Shown piece by piece: positions 2,856 through 16,841 of a stretch of DNA of 17,984 nt (position 1 is the stretch's first letter; every line of letters begins with the position of its first letter). Under the pieces are notes generated by a model. The model did no database searches and was not told the origin of the DNA. It saw nothing but the letters and a program-made list of their open reading frames with translations. The position numbers were made by a program, and so were the translations under genes. Source of the stretch: a virus (taxonomy: Duplodnaviria; Heunggongvirae; Uroviricota; Caudoviricetes); IMG/VR virus record IMGVR_UViG_2541047596_000007; one strand, 5' to 3'.

Positions 2856-3074
2856 TCAAAGAGAGAGCGCCACCTGTCCTGATTTCATTGGATGCGGCTG
2901 AACCGGATTTGACTCTTTTGGCGTTGCAATCGAACGAACAAAAGTTTCATGGGTAACAAAAGTATGGCTGCAGTTAATGTTCTGGCACTGGTTGTAACGC
3001 TCTTTGGTCAATGAAGATACCTGAAAACTGCTGCGAGTATGGGCGGCACTTCCACACAGTGGGCAAATCATCAT
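2856..3074 (-). CDS. ogr: Ogr/Delta-family late transcription activator (Cys4 zinc finger)
   Basis: CPLCGSAAH...CQNINCSHTF zinc-finger pattern like P2 Ogr. Start chosen at the internal Met (MMICPLCG), preceded by GGGGAGAA on the minus strand, giving about 72 aa as in P2 Ogr. Confidence 0.8.
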   Translation of the reverse strand: MMICPLCGSAAHTRSSFQVSSLTKERYNQCQNINCSHTFVTHETFVRSIATPKESNPVQPHPMKSGQVALSL

Positions 3075-3164
3075 TTTTCGAGTTCTCCCCATTTTTGCTA
3101 AATTCACAATAATGATACCGCATTATTCCATTTTGCAAACTTAAAAGTTCTCCATTGCGAAGAA

Positions 3165-4001
3165 TCATTCCATTTCGAAATCATCAATCCTCACTTCAAG
3201 CTCCAGACTGGTCGTAAAACCATTATCCGGGCTTACGGTATGCGTCAGAGTCGTAATGGTCCATTCCGCATCATCTATCGGCTGTTTAAAGCCACTGACT
3301 TTCACTGGCATTTCCGTGTAGAGATCTGCCCGCCCTTCCGCCAGTTGTAACGAGAATGACGCAACGCCGCGTTGCAGGCGTTCCCACTGCATTTTCGCCG
3401 CTCGTTCGGCGTTGCTCCGGTTGGCATAAGTGCGATTAAGTACCAGCACGTTTTCATCCGTACCCACCAGGTAATCGCCCTGCTTCGCTTCCGGCTCTTT
3501 CTTCTGCTTCTTAGTCCTGCGCTTACGCTTCACCGTGGTGCTTTCTTTCTTCGCGGGTTCGCGGGTATGCAACCAGCTGGCAATTACGCCCGTGTAGGCT
3601 CCGCGATCTGCCAGGGTAAAGCGGTGACTGTCGCCGTCCTTACGTGTGATAGTGATAACCGGTAGTGGTTTACCGCTGGCGCTTTTACCCTGTCCCTGCC
3701 GGATGAATAACAGATTGCCATTTTTCACCGACGCAATAGCACCGTACTGGCGCGCCAGCCGCATCAGAAAACTGCCGTCACTCTCATTGGTCTGGTCTAT
3801 ATGCTCCACGGGTTTATCCGACAGGTCTTCACCCAATGCCATCTTCAGTTTGTGCCGCGCAGATATTTCCTTCACGACTTCCCCAACGGTGGTCTTGTGC
3901 CACGATTTTTCACGGCGGGTATTCAGCGTTTCACGAAAATCAGCACTTCGCGCCCGGATAGTCAGGCGGTCCGGTGCGCCAGTGTGTTCAATCTCGTCCA
4001 C
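3165..4001 (-). pseudogene. P2 gpD-like tail protein, N-terminally truncated remnant
   Basis: The 278-aa ORF (TGAPDRLTIRARSADFRETLNTRRE...DQTNESDGSFLMRLARQYGA) matches the middle and C-terminal part of P2 gpD. About 100 N-terminal residues of the roughly 387-aa protein are missing and the upstream gene U is absent. Confidence 0.7.
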
Positions 4002-4329
4002 CGTGAATGCCCCTTTCGGGAAAAGCGGCTGCCCGATGAAGCAAGCCCGCGTCGCAGCAGTGCCAGTGGTGCGCCAGCCAGCCAGGACAACGCGCTGCTG
4101 GTTCGAGTTACTGCTGCCGTAACGGAAGGTAACATTTTGATACCCAGCACAGAGAATCCCAGACGGATCACTGCCAGCGGCCCCAGCACTGCAGCCAGCG
4201 CCACCGCTAAGGTGCCGAGGCCCACGGTAACGGCAGCCACCACAGCGGCTACTTTCATCAGTGTGCCTGTCAGTTCCGGGTTAGCTTCCACCCAGCGACG
4301 CAACGCCCCTGTGACCGACGCCGCACAAA

Positions 4330-4700
4330 ACCAGGAGGATGTGAACAACCTCCGCAACGCGATGAAAAGCGCCAAAGGCCCAGGTAACTTCCGCAACCTG
4401 TTTATGTACTCGCCTAACGGCAAAAAGGACGGGCTTCAGATCATCCCGTTGTCAGAAGTCGCGGCGAAGGATGAGTTTTTGAATATCAAGAACGTGAGCC
4501 GGGATGACATGATGGCGGCGCATCGTGTGCCGCCTCAGATGATGGGGATTATGCCGAGTAATGTTGGCGGGTTTGGGGATGTGGAAAAGGCTAGTAAGGT
4601 TTTTGTAAGAAATGAAGTAATCCCCTTACAGCAAAGAATCTGTGAAATCAACCGATGGTTAAATGACGATATAATAAATTTTAAAGAATATTCGATGTAA
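4330..4700 (+). pseudogene. Phage portal protein (P2 gpQ-like), C-terminal fragment only
   Basis: The last ~120 aa of ORF 3801-4700 (FRNLFMYSPNGKKDGLQIIPLSEVAAKDEFLNIKNVSRDDMMAAHRVPPQMMGIMPSNVGGFGDVEKA) resemble the portal C-terminus. The N-terminal part of that ORF is antisense to the gpD region and not portal-like. The left boundary is approximate. Confidence 0.5.
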
Positions 4701-4732
4701 AATTAAAGAGTCTCAAATGAGACTCTTTAATT
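4701..4732. terminator. Bidirectional hairpin between portal remnant and HNH gene
   Basis: Perfect 14-bp inverted repeat AATTAAAGAGTCTC / GAGACTCTTTAATT (4701-4714 and 4719-4732) with a 4-nt loop, lying between two convergent stop codons. Confidence 0.55.
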
Positions 4733-5400
4733 TAAGGAAGCATCGTATCAAAAACATCACGCAACGCAGTAGAGAATGGTCTGGGGTCTATTTCTTTATA
4801 ATACTCGTCTCGAAGTTCGTTACGGACACTATCATCATAAAGTCCCTCTTCGATGAACTCTTCAGCTGTAGAAACAAATCTCTCTATCAATGACCATGTT
4901 TCTGATATTGCATTGATGCGCTCAGTTTTCACGCCGCCCTTTTCACCATTCAGGTTAAAAACCCTTATAGTAACCTCAGCTCTTCGCTCATCGTTTCGCG
5001 ATAACCCCGGACGAATATCCATATTTCCATTAATAGCGAAATGGAAAAAATGTGTGGGGTCATCATTATCGGCCTTGATTAGGTCTTGCTCCTGATAGCT
5101 CTGTTCATCTTTGTAAAAACCGCAGTGATTATTTTCAGCACAAGAGCCGAACAAGTTTGACCATTCAAATGTTAAATGCCTATGCTGGCTTCTACGCAAA
5201 AAATGCTCGATATGCTTATCATCACTATTGTGAATATCTATTTTCCGCTCACAATACGCACATCTCTTCCCTTGCATTTCAACTAAACCGACCCAGACTA
5301 ATTGTTTATGTCGCCGTTTAAAAGCATTCCAGTCATGAATATTGTAGTCAAACTCGGCTAAAACACCTGGACCAATGGGATTTCTAGCAAGGAATTTCAT
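4732..5400 (-). CDS. HNH endonuclease, PtuB-like retron/Septu effector
   Basis: 222 aa with an HNH signature (CAYCERKIDIHNSDDKHIEHF ... CAENNHCG). The start overlaps the upstream ATPase stop in an ATGA junction. Confidence 0.8.
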   Translation of the reverse strand: MKFLARNPIGPGVLAEFDYNIHDWNAFKRRHKQLVWVGLVEMQGKRCAYCERKIDIHNSDDKHIEHFLRRSQHRHLTFEWSNLFGSCAENNHCGFYKDEQSYQEQDLIKADNDDPTHFFHFAINGNMDIRPGLSRNDERRAEVTIRVFNLNGEKGGVKTERINAISETWSLIERFVSTAEEFIEEGLYDDSVRNELRDEYYKEIDPRPFSTALRDVFDTMLP

Positions 5401-7052
5401 TGTTTAGATTCCTTATTGCCAGACTCACCCCGCACTTTGTCTTTTAGCTTTAATACACGAATTATACCATCACACTCAAGTAATAATGGGTGATCAATTC
5501 CATAATGCTTGTCTAACTTTTTCCTTATCATTATGGCTTCCTCCGAATCCTGCTGCCTGTTTTCAATAAATTTCTTATAAGTGCTCAGCCATGCGACTTC
5601 TTTTACATTAGGTACAGGATCTGTTTTCATCCCATAAAGCAAAGCGTACGAATTCTTAGTACCTTTTGTTTGAGATGATGGTAAAAGCACACGTAATTCC
5701 TTCATGCCTGTCGAAGGGTTTTTTATTTCCTCAAGGATGCGCAAGCATTTACTTGGAACTGTCGATACAATTTGAGGGCTATGAGTGGTAATTATGAATT
5801 GTACGTTAGGAAATGTATGCTGCAATTTCTCAATAATGTTTTGCTGCCAGCTTGGGTGCAAATGAAGATCAACTTCATCAATTAATACTATACCTTTCCC
5901 TTGAAGTGGATTATTTAACTTAGGATTCAGCAACACCAAGCGTCTTGTTAAATCCCCCACTAATGTAAGTATAGTTTTCTCCCCTTGAGAGAGTTGCTGG
6001 GCATCTAATAGTAAATCATCTTTTGCTAAAACTAAACGAACTTCATTTTCAGTATATTGAAGTTCAACAGAGCTAATTTCAGGAAGGAAATTAATTATTG
6101 CCCTTTTAACATTAGCAACAATATCTTTTGAACGACTTAAACCATTTGGTGTAGACGGTAACGTATTAAGAATCAACTCTTTATTAGCAATTTGTGTTTC
6201 TATATCTATTAATGTTCTTCTATCAACATCACTGAAAGATTTCAAAACCTCCAAAGATACCTTAAGCTTTGAGATATCAATAACAAGTTGATCTCTTTGT
6301 TTTTCTGGTATCAAGGACTCCTCAGACAATGCCTTATTATTAACAAATATAAACCAATTTAAAAACTCACCGAAGTCACGGCGATCAAACTCTATATCTT
6401 CATAAGCATCAAGCTTAGTCCATCGACGCACAGAATTATTAACATTTCTTTTATTATCTATGCCTGCACCATTTGAAGATCTTGATACAGAGTAATATGC
6501 AAGAACCGGAAGGCTTACATCTTCATAATATGAATTCACAACACGAAAGAATGACGCCATCTCTTTTATAGAAAGCAACTCATTATTTCTTTTTTGTGAT
6601 ACTCCATCTTTAACACGTGTAACTAAAATATTTGACGTTATTTTTTTAAGTTTAAACTGCGCAGTTATTGCAGCATAATTGACATCATTATGATTGTTAA
6701 TATCACCATCTTTTATATGAAAACCGCTTTTATCTTCTTTTTGAACATTTGCTCTAAACCAACTTAAAGCAATAAATAATGCTTCAAGAATGGTGGTTTT
6801 ACCGTAACCATTATCACCAACAAACACTGTTAGTTTTTTGTCGATCGAAACAAAAAGATCCCTGACTCTTTTATAGTCTGAGATGGCGACTTTATTTATA
6901 AGAAATGGTGCATCTTCAATTTCCTTATATAACGAAGATACCTCTTCAGGAATGTTCTCTTTACTGAATTCTAAACCATCTTCAGTTTTATTTACATAAG
7001 ACTGCAATAATGTACGAATGTCATTTGGTGATTTAGTATACTTTGAGTTCAC
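5397..7052 (-). CDS. ABC/SMC-like ATPase, PtuA-like retron/Septu partner
   Basis: 551 aa with Walker A (GDNGYGKTT), an ABC-signature-like LSQGEK, and Walker B/H-loop (VLIDEVDLHLHP). Overlaps the RT stop and the HNH start by ATGA at both ends. Confidence 0.82.
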   Translation of the reverse strand: MNSKYTKSPNDIRTLLQSYVNKTEDGLEFSKENIPEEVSSLYKEIEDAPFLINKVAISDYKRVRDLFVSIDKKLTVFVGDNGYGKTTILEALFIALSWFRANVQKEDKSGFHIKDGDINNHNDVNYAAITAQFKLKKITSNILVTRVKDGVSQKRNNELLSIKEMASFFRVVNSYYEDVSLPVLAYYSVSRSSNGAGIDNKRNVNNSVRRWTKLDAYEDIEFDRRDFGEFLNWFIFVNNKALSEESLIPEKQRDQLVIDISKLKVSLEVLKSFSDVDRRTLIDIETQIANKELILNTLPSTPNGLSRSKDIVANVKRAIINFLPEISSVELQYTENEVRLVLAKDDLLLDAQQLSQGEKTILTLVGDLTRRLVLLNPKLNNPLQGKGIVLIDEVDLHLHPSWQQNIIEKLQHTFPNVQFIITTHSPQIVSTVPSKCLRILEEIKNPSTGMKELRVLLPSSQTKGTKNSYALLYGMKTDPVPNVKEVAWLSTYKKFIENRQQDSEEAIMIRKKLDKHYGIDHPLLLECDGIIRVLKLKDKVRGESGNKESKQ

Positions 7053-7990
7053 ATCCCCTCCTCAGAAAAAAGCGCATGTATTACTTCTTTCCCATATTTA
7101 ATTTTCATTCTAGCAATAAATTTAGGCTCTATATATAAAGCATGTCCAACAAAGCCCTTAAGGCTTATAACATCCTCTTTAGCCAGTAAGCCTAGTGTAT
7201 ATTTATGCAGCAGAGAAGAAATCATTCTCTTCTTTTGCCTACCGAGCGAAAGCTCCCCATCAACTGTTAATGTCACACCTGTCACATGTCTATTATGAGC
7301 TTTAGACGTGAATACAGTTTTAGATTCATTTAAAGATATACCTTTAGCACATAATGATAATGCAAACCTTACTACTTTCGGGACCTCAAAAAGTATATTC
7401 TTCTCATCTGTAGAAAATGTAATATCATCAGCATACCTTGAATATGAAATATTCCTAACAGAGCACCAATTGTTTATATAATTATCAAAATCATACATTA
7501 CAAAATTACTAACAAAAGGTGAGGATGGCGCCCCAACGCTCAACACGAGAGTGATACTTCTTTTTTTTCCTGGTTTCCAGAAAAGAATCCCTTCTAAAAA
7601 CTCCTTATCCTCACCTGACAAAACAACCCCTTGAGAGCGAAGTTTATCAAATAAAAGAGCCGGTTTAATTTTATTGAAGAAATTCTGAAAATCCATTTTT
7701 AAAAGATAGGAGTTTGCCATATGGATTTTGGCATTGTCCTTAATTCCTATAGAAACTTTATAAGCTTTCGCTGCATCGTGCACGATGAGCTTGGAAGCCA
7801 AAATTTTCACAACCTCACGCTGAATTCGCTTTATCTCACTCGTTGGTTGAGCAATAAGCCTGAATCCACTTTGTCGTTTAGGAATTGTGTAGACTTTATA
7901 TTTTTTAGGCGCAACACTCGATAACCGCCTCAGCTCGTTAACGTTTACTCCAAGTTCTTTGCTAACAGCCGATAAAATTTCCATAAACAT
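7049..7990 (-). CDS. Retron-type reverse transcriptase
   Basis: 313 aa with RT motifs: LKMDFQNFF (motif A), GAPSSPFVSN (motif B) and RYADDITFS (YADD catalytic motif C). Its size and the adjacent structured ncRNA fit a retron RT. Confidence 0.88.
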   Translation of the reverse strand: MFMEILSAVSKELGVNVNELRRLSSVAPKKYKVYTIPKRQSGFRLIAQPTSEIKRIQREVVKILASKLIVHDAAKAYKVSIGIKDNAKIHMANSYLLKMDFQNFFNKIKPALLFDKLRSQGVVLSGEDKEFLEGILFWKPGKKRSITLVLSVGAPSSPFVSNFVMYDFDNYINNWCSVRNISYSRYADDITFSTDEKNILFEVPKVVRFALSLCAKGISLNESKTVFTSKAHNRHVTGVTLTVDGELSLGRQKKRMISSLLHKYTLGLLAKEDVISLKGFVGHALYIEPKFIARMKIKYGKEVIHALFSEEGM

Positions 7991-8270
7991 TCCGCTTGTG
8001 AGGCCCGCTTGCGCGGGCCGAGCTCTTCACTAAAGACAGCGAAAGCGACGAATTCCGCCTTCGTAAACTATGGCAACAGCCATAGGATGCGAAGGCGGAA
8101 TTCGTCGCTTTCGCAACCCTAAACTGAGCAATAAATTAGAGCCTGGCTTATCGCCCGGCTAGAACGCAATGGTTCCCTAACGCTAAAGAGCATAGGAATA
8201 CTAATGTTGCAACGAACAAATAGCAAGCCGGGCGCGCGCTCGTATCCCCGCCACGCCTGCCCGCTTTATG
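7991..8270 (-). ncRNA. Retron msr-msd non-coding RNA (boundaries approximate)
   Basis: Non-coding GC-rich region immediately upstream of the RT on the same strand. It contains the long msd hairpin (8039-8114), a 7-bp hairpin GGCCCGC-TTGC-GCGGGCC (8002-8019) and a long-range complement CGCCCGGCT (8152-8160) / AGCCGGGCG (8226-8234). I could not identify a1/a2 by eye. Confidence 0.55.
8039..8114 (-). repeat. msd stem-loop: perfect 25-bp inverted repeat
   Basis: GCGAAAGCGACGAATTCCGCCTTCG (8039-8063) is the exact reverse complement of CGAAGGCGGAATTCGTCGCTTTCGC (8090-8114). The 26-nt loop holds an inner 6-bp palindrome CTATGG/CCATAG (8068-8073 and 8080-8085). Confidence 0.85.
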
Positions 8271-8300
8271 TAGTGGTTTTCATGCACCTGCATGATCTAC

Positions 8301-8326
8301 GCAAAAGCCCGCCAGTTCTGGCAGGC
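8301..8326 (-). terminator. Candidate rho-independent terminator after the DinI-like operon
   Basis: On the minus strand, GCCUGCCAG-AAC-CUGGCGGGC forms a 9-bp stem with one G-U pair, followed by UUUUGC. Confidence 0.35.
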
Positions 8327-8460
8327 CTTAGCAAAAACGATCCTCAAACGATCATGCGATCTCATGCGGCATAGACATGCACCACAGAGCTAACGCCTCG
8401 CACAGCTCGTTGTTCAACCTTGCTGACGCCAGAAGCAAGTTCAGACGCCAGCAGCGTTTC

Positions 8461-8694
8461 TTAATGCAGCCAGCTGTCGTCTTCCCACACCTTCTGCATA
8501 ATTTTCATCACTTGTTTTCTTTCTTCGTCCAGTTGCAGTCCGGTCAGTTCCACACCGTTAGAGCTACCTTTGCGGATACGAATTACCGTTTTGGGATACA
8601 GGGGGCGCAGATTGCGGTAAAGCTCGGATTCAAGGGCGTCCAGGATAGACTGGCTAATCTTCTGCTCTTTATCGATCATTATTTCAATGCGCAT
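8461..8694 (-). CDS. DinI-family protein (77 aa)
   Basis: Start taken at the internal Met MRIEIMIDK, preceded by GAGGTG. The pattern MRIE...DAL..EL...W.DD.W parallels E. coli DinI (MRIEVTIAK...WESADDW). Confidence 0.78.
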   Translation of the reverse strand: MRIEIMIDKEQKISQSILDALESELYRNLRPLYPKTVIRIRKGSSNGVELTGLQLDEERKQVMKIMQKVWEDDSWLH

Positions 8695-8704
8695 AAAAGT
8701 CACC

Positions 8705-8893
8705 TCAGTTGATGACATCCATTGAGCGGTTGTATTCGTGGCTTCTGATTTTTGCCATGAGTTCATCTGTCAATTCAGAAACCCACTGCAGAGCCAGCCC
8801 CTTCTCTTCATCACTACACTCACTAGCCGCTACAAGCTTAAGAAAAAAATCAATGCGCTGGAGCTTCAAAGACTCCAAAAAATAGTCCTGCAT
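8705..8893 (-). CDS. Small hypothetical protein (62 aa), first gene of LexA-box operon
   Basis: Start chosen at MQDYFLESL because of a strong SD (GGAGGAAAG then ATG) and LexA boxes just upstream. The longer 96-aa reading would place the LexA boxes inside the coding region. Confidence 0.5.
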   Translation of the reverse strand: MQDYFLESLKLQRIDFFLKLVAASECSDEEKGLALQWVSELTDELMAKIRSHEYNRSMDVIN

Positions 8894-8919
8894 CTTTCCT
8901 CCTATGACACCACAAGCAA

Positions 8920-8954
8920 TACTGTATGCATAAACACTGTTTATATTTACAGTA
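8920..8954. promoter_or_regulatory. LexA (SOS) box plus adjacent half-matching box upstream of the small-ORF/DinI-like operon
   Basis: caCTGTttatatttACAGta (8935-8954) fits CTGT-N8-ACAG with an AT-rich spacer. The overlapping CTGTatgcataaACAC (8922-8937) is a near match. Confidence 0.6.
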
Positions 8955-9046
8955 TATAATAATCTTACTGATGTAAAACGTTTTTTTACGTTCATCAGCC
9001 TGATATGCCTGGTATTATTAAGAGCACGAATTGTTAACCCGCGTAA

Positions 9047-11461
9047 TTAATACAGGTTCCGCCACTTATCATCTTCCTGCAAACGCTGGTTCCGATAGAA
9101 GATACGCAGGCCTGCTCCTGACGGAATACTGCCACCGCGAAGGAGCAAATCGACCTCTTTCTCGCTGCCATCAAATCCTCTGGACTTCAGTTCATAGACG
9201 AGCTGCTGACGCTGATGCTCTGTAATTCGCTGTTTGTAGTCTTTACGCCGTTTCGGTTTAACCAGGCGTAATCTTGCTACCAGTTCCCGGCGCTCTTTTT
9301 TGTTCATACAGTGCAGGTAATCGTGCAACTCCTTGTCATCCATGCGGGTGATATCCGTTCTGGTATCCCCATCAGCTGATTTGTCTTTCCCTTGTTGGTA
9401 CAAATTTTCAGCAAGGGGACAGTTATTGCCACGAGTCCAAGGGGCGCAAGCGCTCTGGTCGGCTACCGCCTCCTGAACGTCAACGGCCTTACGAACCATT
9501 TTCCACTTCACTGCATGAGTGCAGATCTTGCCCTCTGCAATGGGTGACCAGATGCCATAAATACGAATACCGTGATCGCCATAGGCGGTCGGCTCTTCGT
9601 TAATTTCATAAGCAGTTCTGATGAGGTGATATTTACGGGGAACCAGTACACCTCCCTGCTTCATGATATAGGTGGCAAAACAACCAGCATCAGCAGCAGC
9701 CAGAATGGCATCAAGGCGCGGGTTATCCAGTACCGGCACACCTGCTTTTTTGTCACCCTGCTGCCTTGCCGCCTGACCAGCCAGCAATCGCAGTTCACGG
9801 TAAGCCTGACGCCCCGGAATACCAAAGAAGCGGAATTGCTGAACACGATGCAAAGACGCCCAGGCATTCACGTATTCAGCGTTATCACGAAGAGATTTAC
9901 CCGTTTCCTTGCTGATCTCGCCAGCCAGACCACGCCCGTCAATGTTCTTACTGATGTATTTCGCTATGTAGCTTGTCGGCGTTCCTTTGCGCGGGTTAAT
10001 CAGCTCAGACTTAAAGCGCGGCCCCGTGTTATTGCCCAGCTCCTCGCGGTCTTCACGGATAGCAAACTTACGCAACAATGCAGTAATGGCGCGGCGGTCT
10101 TTTTTGCGCATGAAACACAACAGGTGCCAGTGAACTGTGCCGTCGTGATGCGGCTCAGCCACCCGCACGCCATACCAGCGCAACCCGGCTTTGTGCATCG
10201 CCTTACGAAATGCAGCAAACATACCGACCAGATAATCGCTGCTTTGTCTTACCGTCGCGTTTTTCCAGGTCGGATTGGGTCTGCCGTTATTGAGCGTGGA
10301 ATGGAAACGTGACGGACAGGTAATGGTGTAGAAAACGGCGCAGTCACCGCGCATTTCCGCGATAAGCTCCAGACCTTTAACACAGGCCATCATCTCATTG
10401 CGGCGATGCGCCGGGTTGCTGCAGCTGGCGTTTACCACATCTTCCATATCCAGCGCGTCTCCGTCTTCGTTCACCAGTTCATGAGAACGGAAAAACTCCA
10501 GCGACTTACGGCACTGCTCACGTTTATGCATCACAGCTTCATAGCTGACATAGGGAGATGCTTTTTTGCTGACCAGGCAGACAGCACGCAACTGCTCTTC
10601 CCGCCATTCGCAACGCATCTTCCACAATTTCCGATACCACCAGTCGGCGCACAGCATACGCGCCAGCGAGCCCGGAATGAGTTCATAGGGCACGGGTTTA
10701 CGGCGGTTTCTTTTCCGACGGAGTTGCTCAAACGCAGGCGGGATGACATCCAAACGTAGGGTTTCCGCTGCCACCTTTTCCCATGTCTTGCGGATTTCTT
10801 CTGGCTTAACATCATCGGTGGCGTACAAATCACCACAAGCGGCATCAAGACACATGCTCATATGCGCAGCGACAAGGGTAGACAGGCGTTTCACCTGATC
10901 CTGACTCATTTCAGGCAGGATCAGCAGGCCGTCCAGCCCTTCATGGCTTGCCATAAAGCGAAAAGAAGTGGATAGCTGACTGTCGCGTACATGCTCCAGT
11001 CGTTCCAGACATGGCTTAATCGTCTCACGCAAATAGCGGGAATAAGCCTTTGGCCTGCCCAGACTGCTGAAGTATTCAATACGTTGCATCAGCGGCTTGC
11101 TGATATGGGAAGGCTGGGCGTTGACGTCAGCCAGAATGACCATGTCTGGATTAAAACGCTGCTGCTCATGCGCCAGCTTTGCCCGGCTAATGAGCTTATC
11201 CTGCTCCATTTCGCGCTGGACAGGATCACGGGATTCATTAAAGAAATAACGCTCCCAGACCTGCTCACTCAGTGCCTCGCGGCGCAGTTGTTCCTGCTCG
11301 TTATCGGCAGCATACAGAGTGATCAGGTTTGAAAGTGCAGACTCCGGCGCAAATTCCGCCGGGTCCAGATAAGGGTTAATGGCCTTTTTCGGGCCGTTCC
11401 ATGAAAATGATGCAGCGGCCTCGTTAAAGCCGCTAGAGTTGCTCATATCGTCATGACTCAT
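9047..11461 (-). CDS. A: P2/186 gene A-like rolling-circle replication initiator
   Basis: 804 aa with an HUH-type metal motif ([10 protein letters not shown]) and paired tyrosines ([10 protein letters not shown]), as in the P2 A endonuclease. The start overlaps the Dam stop by ATGA. Confidence 0.88.
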
Positions 11462-14241: not shown

Positions 14242-15120
14242 ATGAATTTCAAAAACGGAGGACAGGCAGTCATAAAGCGCATGCTTGAAGCGTATGGATT
14301 CAAGACGCGGCAAGCCCTATGTGAACAGTTCAATGTATCTGCAAGTACTATGGGAACGCGCTGGATGCGTGACGCATTTCCTGCTGACTGGGTAATTCAG
14401 TGTGCAATTGAAACAGGAGCATCTATAGAGTGGCTCTCATTCGGAAAAGGCGTGCCATTTCCTAAGAATACCGAAGTTCCCGCTAAATTAGAGGAACCAG
14501 CATCATTGGTTCAATATGTTCCCAAAGCCACCACCAACGAGAACCCAATTGTGAACCATCCAAATCTGGATTCAGGTGGACGTAATGCGATAAACAGGCT
14601 AATGGAAGCGTATGGCTTTAAAACAAGACAAGAACTTGCCGACCATTTGAATGTGTCTAAAAGCACAATGGCGAATAGATACTTGCGAGACACATTCCCA
14701 GCTGACTGGATCATAAGATGCTCGTTGGAAACAAGAACTTCTCTTTTATGGTTAGCAACTGGGCGCGGGCAAAAACTTGGAAGCGAAGAAAGTGAAGCTT
14801 TAGAAATTCCTAAAGTAAAACTTATTGACAATCAAATTTTCGATGCTGGTCATTTATTGATAGATAAGTCCCTGCTTCCTCATTTTAATGATTTACTCGC
14901 AATTGAAGACGAACATTGCATAAATATTGCACACATGAATAAAGCTAATGTTGAAGACGGAAGATGGATTGTTCAATACCAAAATAATTTCAAGTTAAAA
15001 CAAATTTTTCTATTACCTGGAGGCAATCTTCGAGTAACAGACGATGATTTAACATTTGATTGTGAAAAAGAAGATATAAAATTAGTTGCCAAAATTTTCT
15101 CACAGTACCGTACTATTTAA
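14242..15120 (+). CDS. CI-like repressor with tandemly duplicated N-terminal CI-type HTH domains
   Basis: 292 aa. Residues ~5-70 (RMLEAYGFKTRQALCEQFNVSASTMGTRWMRDAFPADWVIQCAIETGASIEWL) and ~111-176 (RLMEAYGFKTRQELADHLNVSKSTMANRYLRDTFPADWIIRCSLETRTSLLWL) are homologous copies of the phage CI-repressor HTH fold, followed by a distinct ~115-aa C-terminal domain. Confidence 0.72.
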   Translation: MNFKNGGQAVIKRMLEAYGFKTRQALCEQFNVSASTMGTRWMRDAFPADWVIQCAIETGASIEWLSFGKGVPFPKNTEVPAKLEEPASLVQYVPKATTNENPIVNHPNLDSGGRNAINRLMEAYGFKTRQELADHLNVSKSTMANRYLRDTFPADWIIRCSLETRTSLLWLATGRGQKLGSEESEALEIPKVKLIDNQIFDAGHLLIDKSLLPHFNDLLAIEDEHCINIAHMNKANVEDGRWIVQYQNNFKLKQIFLLPGGNLRVTDDDLTFDCEKEDIKLVAKIFSQYRTI

Positions 15121-15135
15121 TCTTGAGGCATAGTA

Positions 15136-16164
15136 ATGGATTTTATAAAAAAACTCGAATTTGGAAATTATACTCTCCGTTTTGGTGATGATGTTTTGCT
15201 AGACTATTATGATGAAATTGTTTTCCCCTCTTTTTTGGAGATGGCAAACATCCGCAGAATATCTGACAAATCAGAGTTCTTTTTCATTGATACTGAATGC
15301 GTCATACTTGACGAAGAAGCAACACCCCCAGTACTCGGAATTAAAGGTCGGATTATTAAGAATACATTATTAACCAGAGAACAAGTATTTGATGGTGCTG
15401 ATTTGGTTGAAGATCATAAAGAGCTTGAAACAGCCCCGAGCTCTTTCTTTCTTCTAATATTAAACACTCACAGATTAATTCTTTGCAAGGAAGTTAGTGG
15501 TGCTCCCACAATTCAAAACTTTCAGTCAACAAGTCAGTGTTTCTTAAACATAGAATATGAAAAATACATATCTCATTTATACGAAACCGCACAAGAAGAA
15601 CGCAAAGAAAACCCTGACTTACCTCGAGTCACTAAAAAAAGCTTACGGAACGAAATCAAACGCCCGAAGCTAAGAATAACGCCGTTAACTGACAAACAAA
15701 GCCTAGAGCAATTTATTGATAATTTTAATAAAATCCAAAATGTCTCAGTAAAACTTCTCCCTACAAATCAAGAAGAAATTGATAACGACGAATTTTGGGA
15801 GTCGCTTGAAAGTGCCGGAGACGAAATGGGAAGTATTTCTACATCTATTCGCTTTTCAAACACCGATTCAGGCTTGAATCATGGTGCTGTTTTAGAACAA
15901 CTCACATCAGCAACCAGATTGGCTAATTCAGGAATAAATATTAAAGGATATGATGACAATGGTGATATAATCAAAGGTAGCAATGATGACTTTGTTTTGT
16001 TAAGTGAGATGAATGAATTATCAAAGGATACGGTAGTAGCTGCAAATGAAAGTTATGAGCGGTATGAAAATCTTGTAGAAGAAGGTAAGATATCTCTACC
16101 CCGTTCTCTTTCACAAAAGACGATTAGAATTATTAGCAATATATATGAAAGGTTTGGTCGATGA
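15136..16164 (+). CDS. Hypothetical soluble protein, unrecognised family (candidate exclusion/defence component A)
   Basis: 342-aa ORF 15 nt downstream of the cI stop, with GAGG about 8 nt upstream of the ATG. Visibly AT-rich compared with the phage core. No catalytic or NTP-binding motif recognised; two domains separated by a charged linker. Confidence 0.7.
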   Translation: MDFIKKLEFGNYTLRFGDDVLLDYYDEIVFPSFLEMANIRRISDKSEFFFIDTECVILDEEATPPVLGIKGRIIKNTLLTREQVFDGADLVEDHKELETAPSSFFLLILNTHRLILCKEVSGAPTIQNFQSTSQCFLNIEYEKYISHLYETAQEERKENPDLPRVTKKSLRNEIKRPKLRITPLTDKQSLEQFIDNFNKIQNVSVKLLPTNQEEIDNDEFWESLESAGDEMGSISTSIRFSNTDSGLNHGAVLEQLTSATRLANSGINIKGYDDNGDIIKGSNDDFVLLSEMNELSKDTVVAANESYERYENLVEEGKISLPRSLSQKTIRIISNIYERFGR

Positions 16165-16841
16165 TAAATAAAATAGATGCTAAAGAAATAACCAAAGAGA
16201 AAAACCTTTGGGATGTTTACTTGCTCTGCAAACGGATTACTATTAGTACATTCCATATTTGCATTTTGCTCACAGCATCTATTTTTTTATTAACAAACTC
16301 TTTTTTTATTGAGAAGGATATGTCTCATTTAGTATCTGACATTAGAAACTGGGCTTTGATTGGTTTTAACTTTGCAGTGACAACCTTAGGTTTTCTCATT
16401 GCTGGTTTCACAATATTTGCAACACTATCCAAACCCGAGATGTTTCTTCAGATGATGTCAATACAACATAAAAAAACACAGATGCCCACGTTAAAATATA
16501 ACTTTATGGCATTTATGAAAGTTTTCATCTCATTTATTACGTTTACTTTCATTTATCTAATAATAATTCTCTTTTGTCAAAAAGATGGAATAATTGGTAA
16601 TATAATTGATTTATTTCCATATTCAAAATCGATAAAAGAATTAATTATTAAATTTGGATACTGTGTTATAGGGACTAGCCTTATTTACTTAGTGTTAGTA
16701 GTAAAGACATTTATTTTTAATATCTACGCTATCATAATGAATAATATTCGTTGGGAGTTATACATTAAAAGAAAAGAACAAAGACTTTCCAGTAACAAAG
16801 AGACAATCAATAAAAACATAGATGTAACTAAAATGCATTAA
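16161..16841 (+). CDS. Hypothetical four-TM membrane protein (candidate exclusion/defence component B)
   Basis: 226 aa whose start overlaps the upstream stop by ATGA. Four hydrophobic segments of about 23-30 residues (approx. aa 26-50, 64-89, 115-139, 162-194). Very AT-rich. Confidence 0.7.
   Translation: MINKIDAKEITKEKNLWDVYLLCKRITISTFHICILLTASIFLLTNSFFIEKDMSHLVSDIRNWALIGFNFAVTTLGFLIAGFTIFATLSKPEMFLQMMSIQHKKTQMPTLKYNFMAFMKVFISFITFTFIYLIIILFCQKDGIIGNIIDLFPYSKSIKELIIKFGYCVIGTSLIYLVLVVKTFIFNIYAIIMNNIRWELYIKRKEQRLSSNKETINKNIDVTKMH

Follow-up and report, generated by a model that had tools for sequence, protein, structure and literature searches.

We analysed a stretch of 17,984 nucleotides (nt), catalogued as a virus of the Caudoviricetes (IMG/VR record IMGVR_UViG_2541047596_000007) and called the window below, whose minus strand carries at positions 4732-8191 an msr/msd non-coding RNA (ncRNA) followed by three overlapping genes for a retron reverse transcriptase (RT), a PtuA ATPase and a PtuB HNH nuclease. 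An earlier note, made from the letters of the sequence, had described a structured non-coding region followed by three translationally coupled genes on this strand and had given their span as 4732-8270. The open reading frames (ORFs) lie exactly as it had placed them, at 7049-7990 (313 amino acids), 5397-7052 (551 amino acids) and 4732-5400 (222 amino acids); the upper limit of the span requires correction, as 8270 takes in a cos site (8239-8257) that is part of the phage backbone and not of the retron. Neighboring genes share 4 nt at both junctions, GTGA between the RT and PtuA genes with GAGGAGGGG upstream and ATGA between the PtuA and PtuB genes with AAGGAA upstream, so that a Shine-Dalgarno sequence stands before each overlapping stop/start, an arrangement consistent with translational coupling. 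The G+C content of the block is 31-39%, against ~50% in its flanks. The protein-coding features are:

7049-7984, minus: retron RT, 311 amino acids from the second ATG (PADLOC RT_I-A, Pfam RVT_1, NCBIfam retron_St85_RT, PDB 9n69_E)
5397-7052, minus: PtuA, SMC/ABC-type ATPase effector, 551 amino acids (PADLOC, Pfam, PDB 9n69_A)
4732-5400, minus: PtuB, HNH nuclease effector, 222 amino acids (PADLOC, NCBIfam, PDB 9n69_F)

All three proteins find their best solved match in chains of PDB 9n69, which belongs with 9n6b and 9n6c to the type I-A retron of E. coli FORC82 (George et al, Nat Commun 2025, PMC12475279); chains of the retrons Ec78 and Ec83 come next and those of stand-alone Septu PtuA and PtuB far behind. 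Together with the PADLOC I-A models, these matches bear out the proposal that the locus belongs to the retron class pairing an RT with Septu-like PtuAB effectors. The two examples given for that class, Ec78 and Ec83, are indeed both of type I-A in the Mestre classification, although the nearest studied relative is FORC82.

The RT matches the PADLOC model RT_I-A from end to end (3.4e-131, 435 bits), and its top PADLOC RT matches are all retron RTs, the best II-A model reaching 370 bits and the remaining models at most 182 bits. By these scores the RT falls in the I-A clade with a modest margin over II-A, and it is the effector content that decides the type. A type II-A retron was ruled out, the nucleoside deoxyribosyltransferase (NDT) or DNA-binding effector genes not being present. 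The protein also matches Pfam RVT_1 and passes the NCBIfam model retron_St85_RT (309.5 bits, cut-off 235). Its translation contains the YADD motif (SRYADDITF) together with NAxxH (DNAKIH) and VTG (RHVTGV), the latter two reportedly presented as retron-specific RT motifs by Mestre et al. in 2020. Other RT classes were rejected on their NCBIfam scores: group II intron RT at 45.6 bits (cut-off 300), Drt3a at 39.8 (200), Drt2 at 39.3 (390) and Drt5 at 22.8 (550) among the defence-associated RTs (DRTs), and AbiA-type RT at 21.6 (250). No model of a diversity-generating retroelement (DGR) RT occurs among the eight NCBIfam matches of the protein. The profile comparison that the earlier note had recommended for separating a retron RT from group II intron, DGR and Abi enzymes thus ends with type I-A as the best match. 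Compared with the FORC82 RT (9n69_E, 9.7e-112, 56% identical), the pairwise alignment conserves the YADD and VTG motifs as well as the S-x-N-E interface with the ATPase, corresponding to FORC82 S217/N219/E220. The ORF has its first ATG at 7990 and a second at 7984. Since a close relative (L025, see below) has ATT in place of the first, the true start is most likely the second, which gives 311 amino acids as in homologues.

The PADLOC models for both effectors are matched over the full length of the proteins, which answers the profile check proposed for the ATPase and the HNH protein, and the motifs announced for them, like the YADD of the RT, can be read in the translations. For PtuA the matches are PADLOC PtuA (2.7e-181) and ATPase_I-A (1.8e-155), with AAA_15, AAA_21 and SMC_N in Pfam; the Walker A motif reads GDNGYGKT and the Walker B motif IVLIDEVD, its Asp being D392. 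The protein aligns with 9n69_A (1.1e-158) and is 47% identical to FORC82 PtuA, C-terminal claw region included; the Walker B Asp (D392) and the claw Gln (Q461, Gln454 in FORC82) are conserved. For PtuB the matches are PADLOC PtuB (6.9e-114) and HNH_I-A (2.5e-55), NCBIfam PtuB (151.3 bits, passing the cut-off of 150) and TIGR02646. It carries the motif CAYCE...HIEHF, with H66 as the predicted catalytic His, and it is 49% identical to FORC82 PtuB (9n69_F, 2.3e-70), the HNH core and C-terminal extension aligning end to end and H66 (FORC82 H71) and G44 being conserved. In FORC82, the PtuA Walker B Asp, claw Gln454, PtuB His71 and the RT S217/N219/E220 interface were shown to be required, and the role of the VTG motif of the RT was described (PMC12475279).

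The RNA features upstream of the RT gene are as follows.

8198-8226, minus: candidate sigma-70 promoter, TTGCTA at 8226-8221, 17-nt spacer, TAGTAT at 8203-8198 (read from the sequence)
8022-8191, minus: retron ncRNA (msr-msd), 170 nt (Rfam msr, fold, inverted repeat, covariation)
8191-8184, minus: a2, GCUCUUUA
8183, minus: predicted priming G, in UUUAGCG (by alignment to G8 of FORC82, PMC12475279)
8176-8161, minus: stem-loop 1 (SL-1; individual sequences and Rfam model)
8160-8140, minus: stem-loop 2 (SL-2)
8114-8039, minus: msd hairpin
8029-8022, minus: a1, UGAAGAGC, pairing with a2
8002-8019, minus: GC-rich hairpin GGCCCGC-GCAA-GCGGGCC in the interval between ncRNA and RT start (read from the sequence; conserved in sub-clade relatives)

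The Rfam family msr (RF00170) matches 8123-8191 on the minus strand with 55.1 bits, above its gathering score of 52. A 186-nt stretch has a folding energy of -91.4 kcal/mol (z = -8.4), a stability attained by none of 200 shuffles, and a 36-nt inverted repeat (8039-8074/8079-8114) forms the msd hairpin. The RNA folding suggested in the earlier note accordingly located a1 and a2, and the priming guanosine it asked for is predicted at 8183. We then aligned 11 type I-A loci, comprising 8022-8191, the FORC82 ncRNA and the upstream regions of nine further type I-A RTs (45-55% identical; Pseudomonas, Shewanella, Methylococcaceae and others), all nine of which have an Rfam msr match upstream of the RT. 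The consensus structure contains three supported elements, the a1/a2 pairing, SL-2 and a 21-bp msd stem: 93.6% of the alignment cells are paired, compared to 38-43% when the partners are slid by 1-3 columns. Double changes that keep the pairing occur at 21 of 40 pairs, 17 of them in the msd stem, a level reached by none of 500 shuffles; the msd stem and a1/a2 both show strong covariation. SL-1 was poorly aligned by MAFFT and is therefore taken from the individual sequences and the Rfam model. RNAalifold also proposed a short helix (alignment columns 13-16 with 164-167); with only 75% pairing, and being incompatible with SL-1 as folded in the individual sequences, it was not counted.

The 5' end of the ncRNA lies 7 nt downstream of the candidate promoter. 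A -10-like TAnnnT box stands at an equal distance from the CTCTTTAG start in the nine other type I-A loci, and it is identical in the sub-clade relatives; by this position and conservation we infer that 8198-8226 serves as the retron promoter. With an msDNA (multicopy single-stranded DNA) of roughly 90 nt and G8 as primer in FORC82 (PMC12475279), and an ncRNA 7 nt longer here, the msDNA is estimated at ~95-100 nt.

Boundaries and distribution of the cargo

Two features frame the retron:

8239-8257, minus: cos-like 19-mer, GGCGTGGCGGGGATACGAG (aligned with cosL of phages 186 and P2)
4700-4733, no strand: perfect 16-nt inverted repeat with a 2-nt loop, 100% complementary, between the convergent portal fragment and ptuB

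The first 13 nt of the 19-mer are identical to cosL of phage 186, the GCGCGCC after them is also common to both, and the site lies 12 nt upstream of the -35-like box of the retron. We assign it to the phage backbone, as the proximal edge of the cargo. At the other end, the inverted repeat looks like a bidirectional terminator forming the distal edge. Up to cos the sequence is 97% identical to FORC82; the stretch of promoter, msr and msd is at 74-81% and the coding part at ~61%, and homology to the FORC82 backbone returns at the portal gene. Because identity drops at cos and resumes at the portal gene, and because the repeat closes the cassette, the sequence comparison places the cargo from just past cos to the terminator at the end of the portal gene.

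The retron lies between the replication gene A (gpA, 9047-11461) and a portal fragment (4312-4700), adjacent to cos. This is the cos-proximal gpA-gpQ interval, a defence hotspot of P2-like phages in which retrons are among the cargos (Rousset et al. 2022, PMC9122126). The interval and its variable character are as the earlier note had proposed; the assignment to the tin/old position of P2 is not. In P2, tin and old (30684-33380) occupy the interval from A to cosR (33575), which is the right end of the map, and the retron stands across cos from it, on the portal side. Given a cos-like site upstream of the -35-like box, the retron is predicted to open the linear genome of such a phage at its left end, between cosL and Q.

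Of 5426 complete E. coli genomes, two contain near-identical DNA (99.6-99.7%). They are M37H and AREA_497, the former carrying the retron in the same prophage remnant on the ybjL side. When the locus was compared by megablast with 50,697 phage records, only the flank on the DinI side matched, and none of the records had the retron. RTs of related loci cluster at 94, 89, 88, 78, 76 and 73% identity, the next being at 62% or less, and this gap places the retron in a small, rare sub-clade of type I-A. One member (L025) occupies the same slot in a 186-like prophage whose portal, terminase and capsid genes are still present; this one intact-looking prophage with the retron comes from a Logan assembly. 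Another, in Klebsiella michiganensis (L023), lies outside a prophage, beside type VI secretion system genes and an insertion sequence. Upstream of its ncRNA, at about 7730-8000 of that sequence, stands a degenerate cos remnant, GGAACGGTGGGGGGACGAGCGCGCGC, which suggests that the Klebsiella copy is of phage origin.

The prophage and its second cargo slot

The window is a piece of E. coli chromosome that opens with 4 kb (grxA, ybjM, ybjL, RybB) 98.8% identical to strain M37H; a 186/P2-like prophage remnant follows, with these features:

2700-2778, plus: RybB small RNA (Rfam, 105 bits)
2856-3107, minus: ogr
3165-4001, minus: gpD fragment
4025-4315 (approximate): tail tape-measure fragment, ~290 bp
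4312-4700, plus: portal remnant, about the last 130 codons (last third; Pfam Phage_portal match below threshold)
8461-8766, minus: DinI-like gene
8705-8995, minus: small conserved phage ORF with no assigned function (phrog_698, 3.9e-37)
9047-11461, minus: replication gene A (gpA; Pfam Phage_GPA, 7e-126)
14242-15120, plus: CI repressor ORF, 292 amino acids, with two Phage_CI_repr helix-turn-helix domains at residues about 10-70 and 116-177
15136-16164: putative RexA-like gene, 342 amino acids, low-GC, between the CI and integrase genes
16161-16841: gene of 226 amino acids, with four hydrophobic segments, low-GC, partner of the preceding gene

The prophage is gutted. Tail, lysis, capsid and terminase genes are all gone, no structural gene being left in the interval from the tape-measure fragment to the surviving last third of the portal gene; the gpD, tape-measure and portal pieces are fused in one spurious 299-amino-acid ORF (3801-4700). 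The deletion of the M37H prophage at the same site is a different and smaller one. RybB directly precedes the ogr end of the prophage, between ybjL and the remnant, and since M37H is arranged likewise the RybB region is probably the attachment-site region. Between gpA and cos, the phrog_698 ORF and the DinI-like gene are backbone, common to FORC82 and to many Klebsiella and E. coli P2-like phages. Beyond gpA lie a Dam methylase gene, early genes, the CI repressor gene, two genes of unknown function and an integrase gene.

The two genes of unknown function (15136-16841) gave no match in searches of Pfam, PADLOC, NCBIfam and PHROGs, nor did a profile built from 21 homologues against PDB sequences. 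An hhalign comparison of the cassette with the lambda RexA sequence was not significant (probability 1.6%), and structure comparison was the sole method to link it to RexA. Relatives of the pair have weak matches to DUF4747, the domain of RexA, Sbash gp30 and CarolAnn (PMC6426596, PMC13373217), and the gene order CI, RexA-like, four-transmembrane protein parallels cI-rexA-rexB of lambda. Across Gammaproteobacteria the pair is conserved: a Serratia 186-like prophage has it in the same slot, Vibrio has it beside Druantia genes, and it occurs elsewhere as well. It is probably a distant RexAB-like exclusion module.

The adjoining CI ORF has relatives of 189-190 amino acids, and only about its first 175 nt match the CI gene of M37H, with low-GC sequence thereafter. 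It looks like a chimeric junction left by recombination of a foreign block of CI and RexAB-like genes into the prophage. In L025 the slot between CI and integrase holds a different gene (857-2323) of 488 amino acids and unknown function, from which the slot appears to be variable in enterobacterial 186-like phages too.

Identity, proposed mechanism and rival explanations

By sequence, the locus has a promoter-like site, an a1/a2-paired msr-msd with the conserved UUUAG, a long msd hairpin, and an RT-PtuA-PtuB operon with intact catalytic motifs. We are highly confident that it is a complete type I-A retron (Septu-associated, resembling Ec78, Ec83 and FORC82), carried as cargo next to cos of a degraded 186/P2-like E. 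coli prophage. That the family is a known one, as the earlier note had stated, is evident from RefSeq, where identical RT and PtuB proteins are already labeled as retron components and an identical PtuA is named "AAA family ATPase"; a literature search on the accessions of these identical proteins returned no papers.

A mechanism can be proposed by transferring the steps described for FORC82 and reportedly for Ec78/Eco7. The RT would bind msr, prime from the 2'-OH of G8183 and copy the msd hairpin into an msDNA of the length estimated above. This msDNA "harpoon" and the RT would recruit four PtuA, whose C-terminal claw would hold one PtuB inactive. Upon infection, phage flap nucleases or exonucleases (of the T3/T5/T7 type in homologues) would degrade the msDNA. 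PtuB would then be released or activated and cleave specific host tRNAs, stopping translation and aborting the infection.

Several observations weigh against this reading of the locus. The mechanistic scheme is carried over from systems that are only 47-56% identical, and expression, msDNA synthesis and defence stand as predictions. Five claw residues were mutated together in FORC82; V and K are the same in the present PtuA, L to I and F to L are conservative replacements, and D522 is a G. PtuA scores 460.7 bits against the NCBIfam Ec78-PtuA equivalog NF041760, below the cut-off of 500, by which it is a diverged PtuA and not an Ec78 orthologue; its RefSeq name accords with this score. The candidate promoter (8 of 12 consensus matches) was not reported by a consensus scan of 4600-8500, for which reason the assignment draws on position and conservation; the scan found 10 promoter-like sites where 12.5 are expected from shuffles. 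The hairpin at 8002-8019 has no U-tract, either here or in the sub-clade relatives, whereas FORC82 and the nine further loci of type I-A show a terminator-like hairpin with a T-run at that place, a difference that may set a different balance between ncRNA and RT-PtuAB expression. In principle, the cargo could also be silent, its host prophage being defective.

Among the alternatives, the one that survives best, although we judge it unlikely, is a type I-A retron with another output, such as PtuB cutting DNA, or with a trigger other than nuclease degradation of msDNA. PtuB is only 49% identical to its FORC82 counterpart, and it scores 107 bits against Ec78 PtuB compared to 240 against FORC82 PtuB. 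Within type I-A, both the tRNA target and the sensitivity to phage anti-retron factors already vary (PMC12475279): FORC82 targets tRNA-Ser (PMC12475279), and Ec78/Eco7 reportedly cleaves tRNA-Tyr and is activated by phage nucleases. Stand-alone Septu PtuAB, moreover, is reported as DNA-degrading (cited in PMC12475279). Opposed to this, the type I-A retrons studied so far (FORC82 and, reportedly, Ec78/Eco7) all cleave tRNA and are activated through msDNA, and the end-to-end alignment with FORC82 PtuB covers both the HNH core and the C-terminal extension. The tRNA target and the phage range of the retron are not predictable at 49% PtuB identity.

Less probable still is a silent relic, a retron persisting merely within a decaying prophage, neither expressed nor functional. 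The loss of structural genes around the portal remnant fits such decay, as does a candidate promoter that is weak by consensus. Yet none of the three ORFs is truncated or has lost its catalytic motifs, the pairing of the ncRNA is preserved, two other E. coli strains have the locus at 99.6-99.7% identity, and the retron has a promoter-like site of its own, independent of the phage late genes. In addition, loss of RT activity is toxic in FORC82 (PMC12475279), which would select against piecemeal decay. A Septu PtuAB pair that is by chance the neighbor of an unrelated RT (group II intron, DGR, Abi or DRT) has a negligible probability and is refuted: although the two effectors match stand-alone Septu models and the structures 8ee4/8ee7 as well, the RT passes the retron model and has 22-46 bits against group II, Abi and DRT cut-offs of 200-550, it is directly preceded by an msr/msd RNA that shows a1/a2 pairing and covariation, and the RT, PtuA and PtuB genes overlap as one operon.

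Returning to the complete type I-A retron, we can extend this reading only tentatively, and with less than even confidence: it may represent a separate, rare sub-clade whose PtuB has a tRNA target or phage trigger other than those of FORC82 and Ec78, and together with the RexAB-like pair it may be what selection has kept of a prophage otherwise gutted, in which case the cargo slots of a 186-like phage, two in number, would make up a two-layer abortive-infection island.

Overall, the outcome mainly confirms the annotation, since type I-A retrons already have several solved structures and a worked-out mechanism, and the retron itself is an uncharacterised member of a well-studied family. Its interest lies in a sub-clade ~50% identical to the nearest studied system, on which variation of PtuB tRNA specificity or of the trigger within type I-A can be tested, in cargo boundaries set precisely from cos to the terminator-like repeat where the portal gene ends, and in a prophage that is devoid of virion genes yet has kept the cargo of both variable slots.

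Comparison with known systems

With old and tin of P2, the retron shares a location in the cos-proximal variable region running from gene A to the portal gene Q; it differs from them in lying on the opposite side of cos, and sequence relationship to old or tin is absent. Stand-alone Septu (PDB 8ee4/8ee7/8eea) has a homologous pair of ATPase and HNH protein (PtuA 2.4e-38, PtuB 1.1e-08). Unlike Septu, the present locus has an RT and an ncRNA, and the match to Septu PtuA covers residues 306-529 only; retron PtuA and PtuB have C-terminal extensions relative to Septu (PMC12475279).

Ec78 (Retron-Eco7) and Ec83 (Retron-Eco4) are of the same RT, PtuA and PtuB type, with full-length matches to their solved chains. 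The RT scores ~280 bits against 9l7p/9vhe and 286 bits against 9e8z, PtuA 254-264 and 213 bits, and PtuB 97-107 bits, which makes both systems clearly more distant than FORC82.

FORC82 itself differs in sequence, the proteins being 56% (RT), 47% (PtuA) and 49% (PtuB) identical and the nucleotides ~61%, in an msd stem altered by compensatory changes, in an ncRNA of 163 nt instead of 170 nt, and in the U-tract that the hairpin after the ncRNA lacks here. It shares with the present locus the order ncRNA-RT-PtuA-PtuB, the strand order and the cos/portal slot of a 186-like prophage. The two ncRNAs can be aligned and agree in a1/a2, priming context, SL-2 and termination region, and the functionally tested residues are conserved in RT, PtuA and PtuB, save for part of the PtuA claw.

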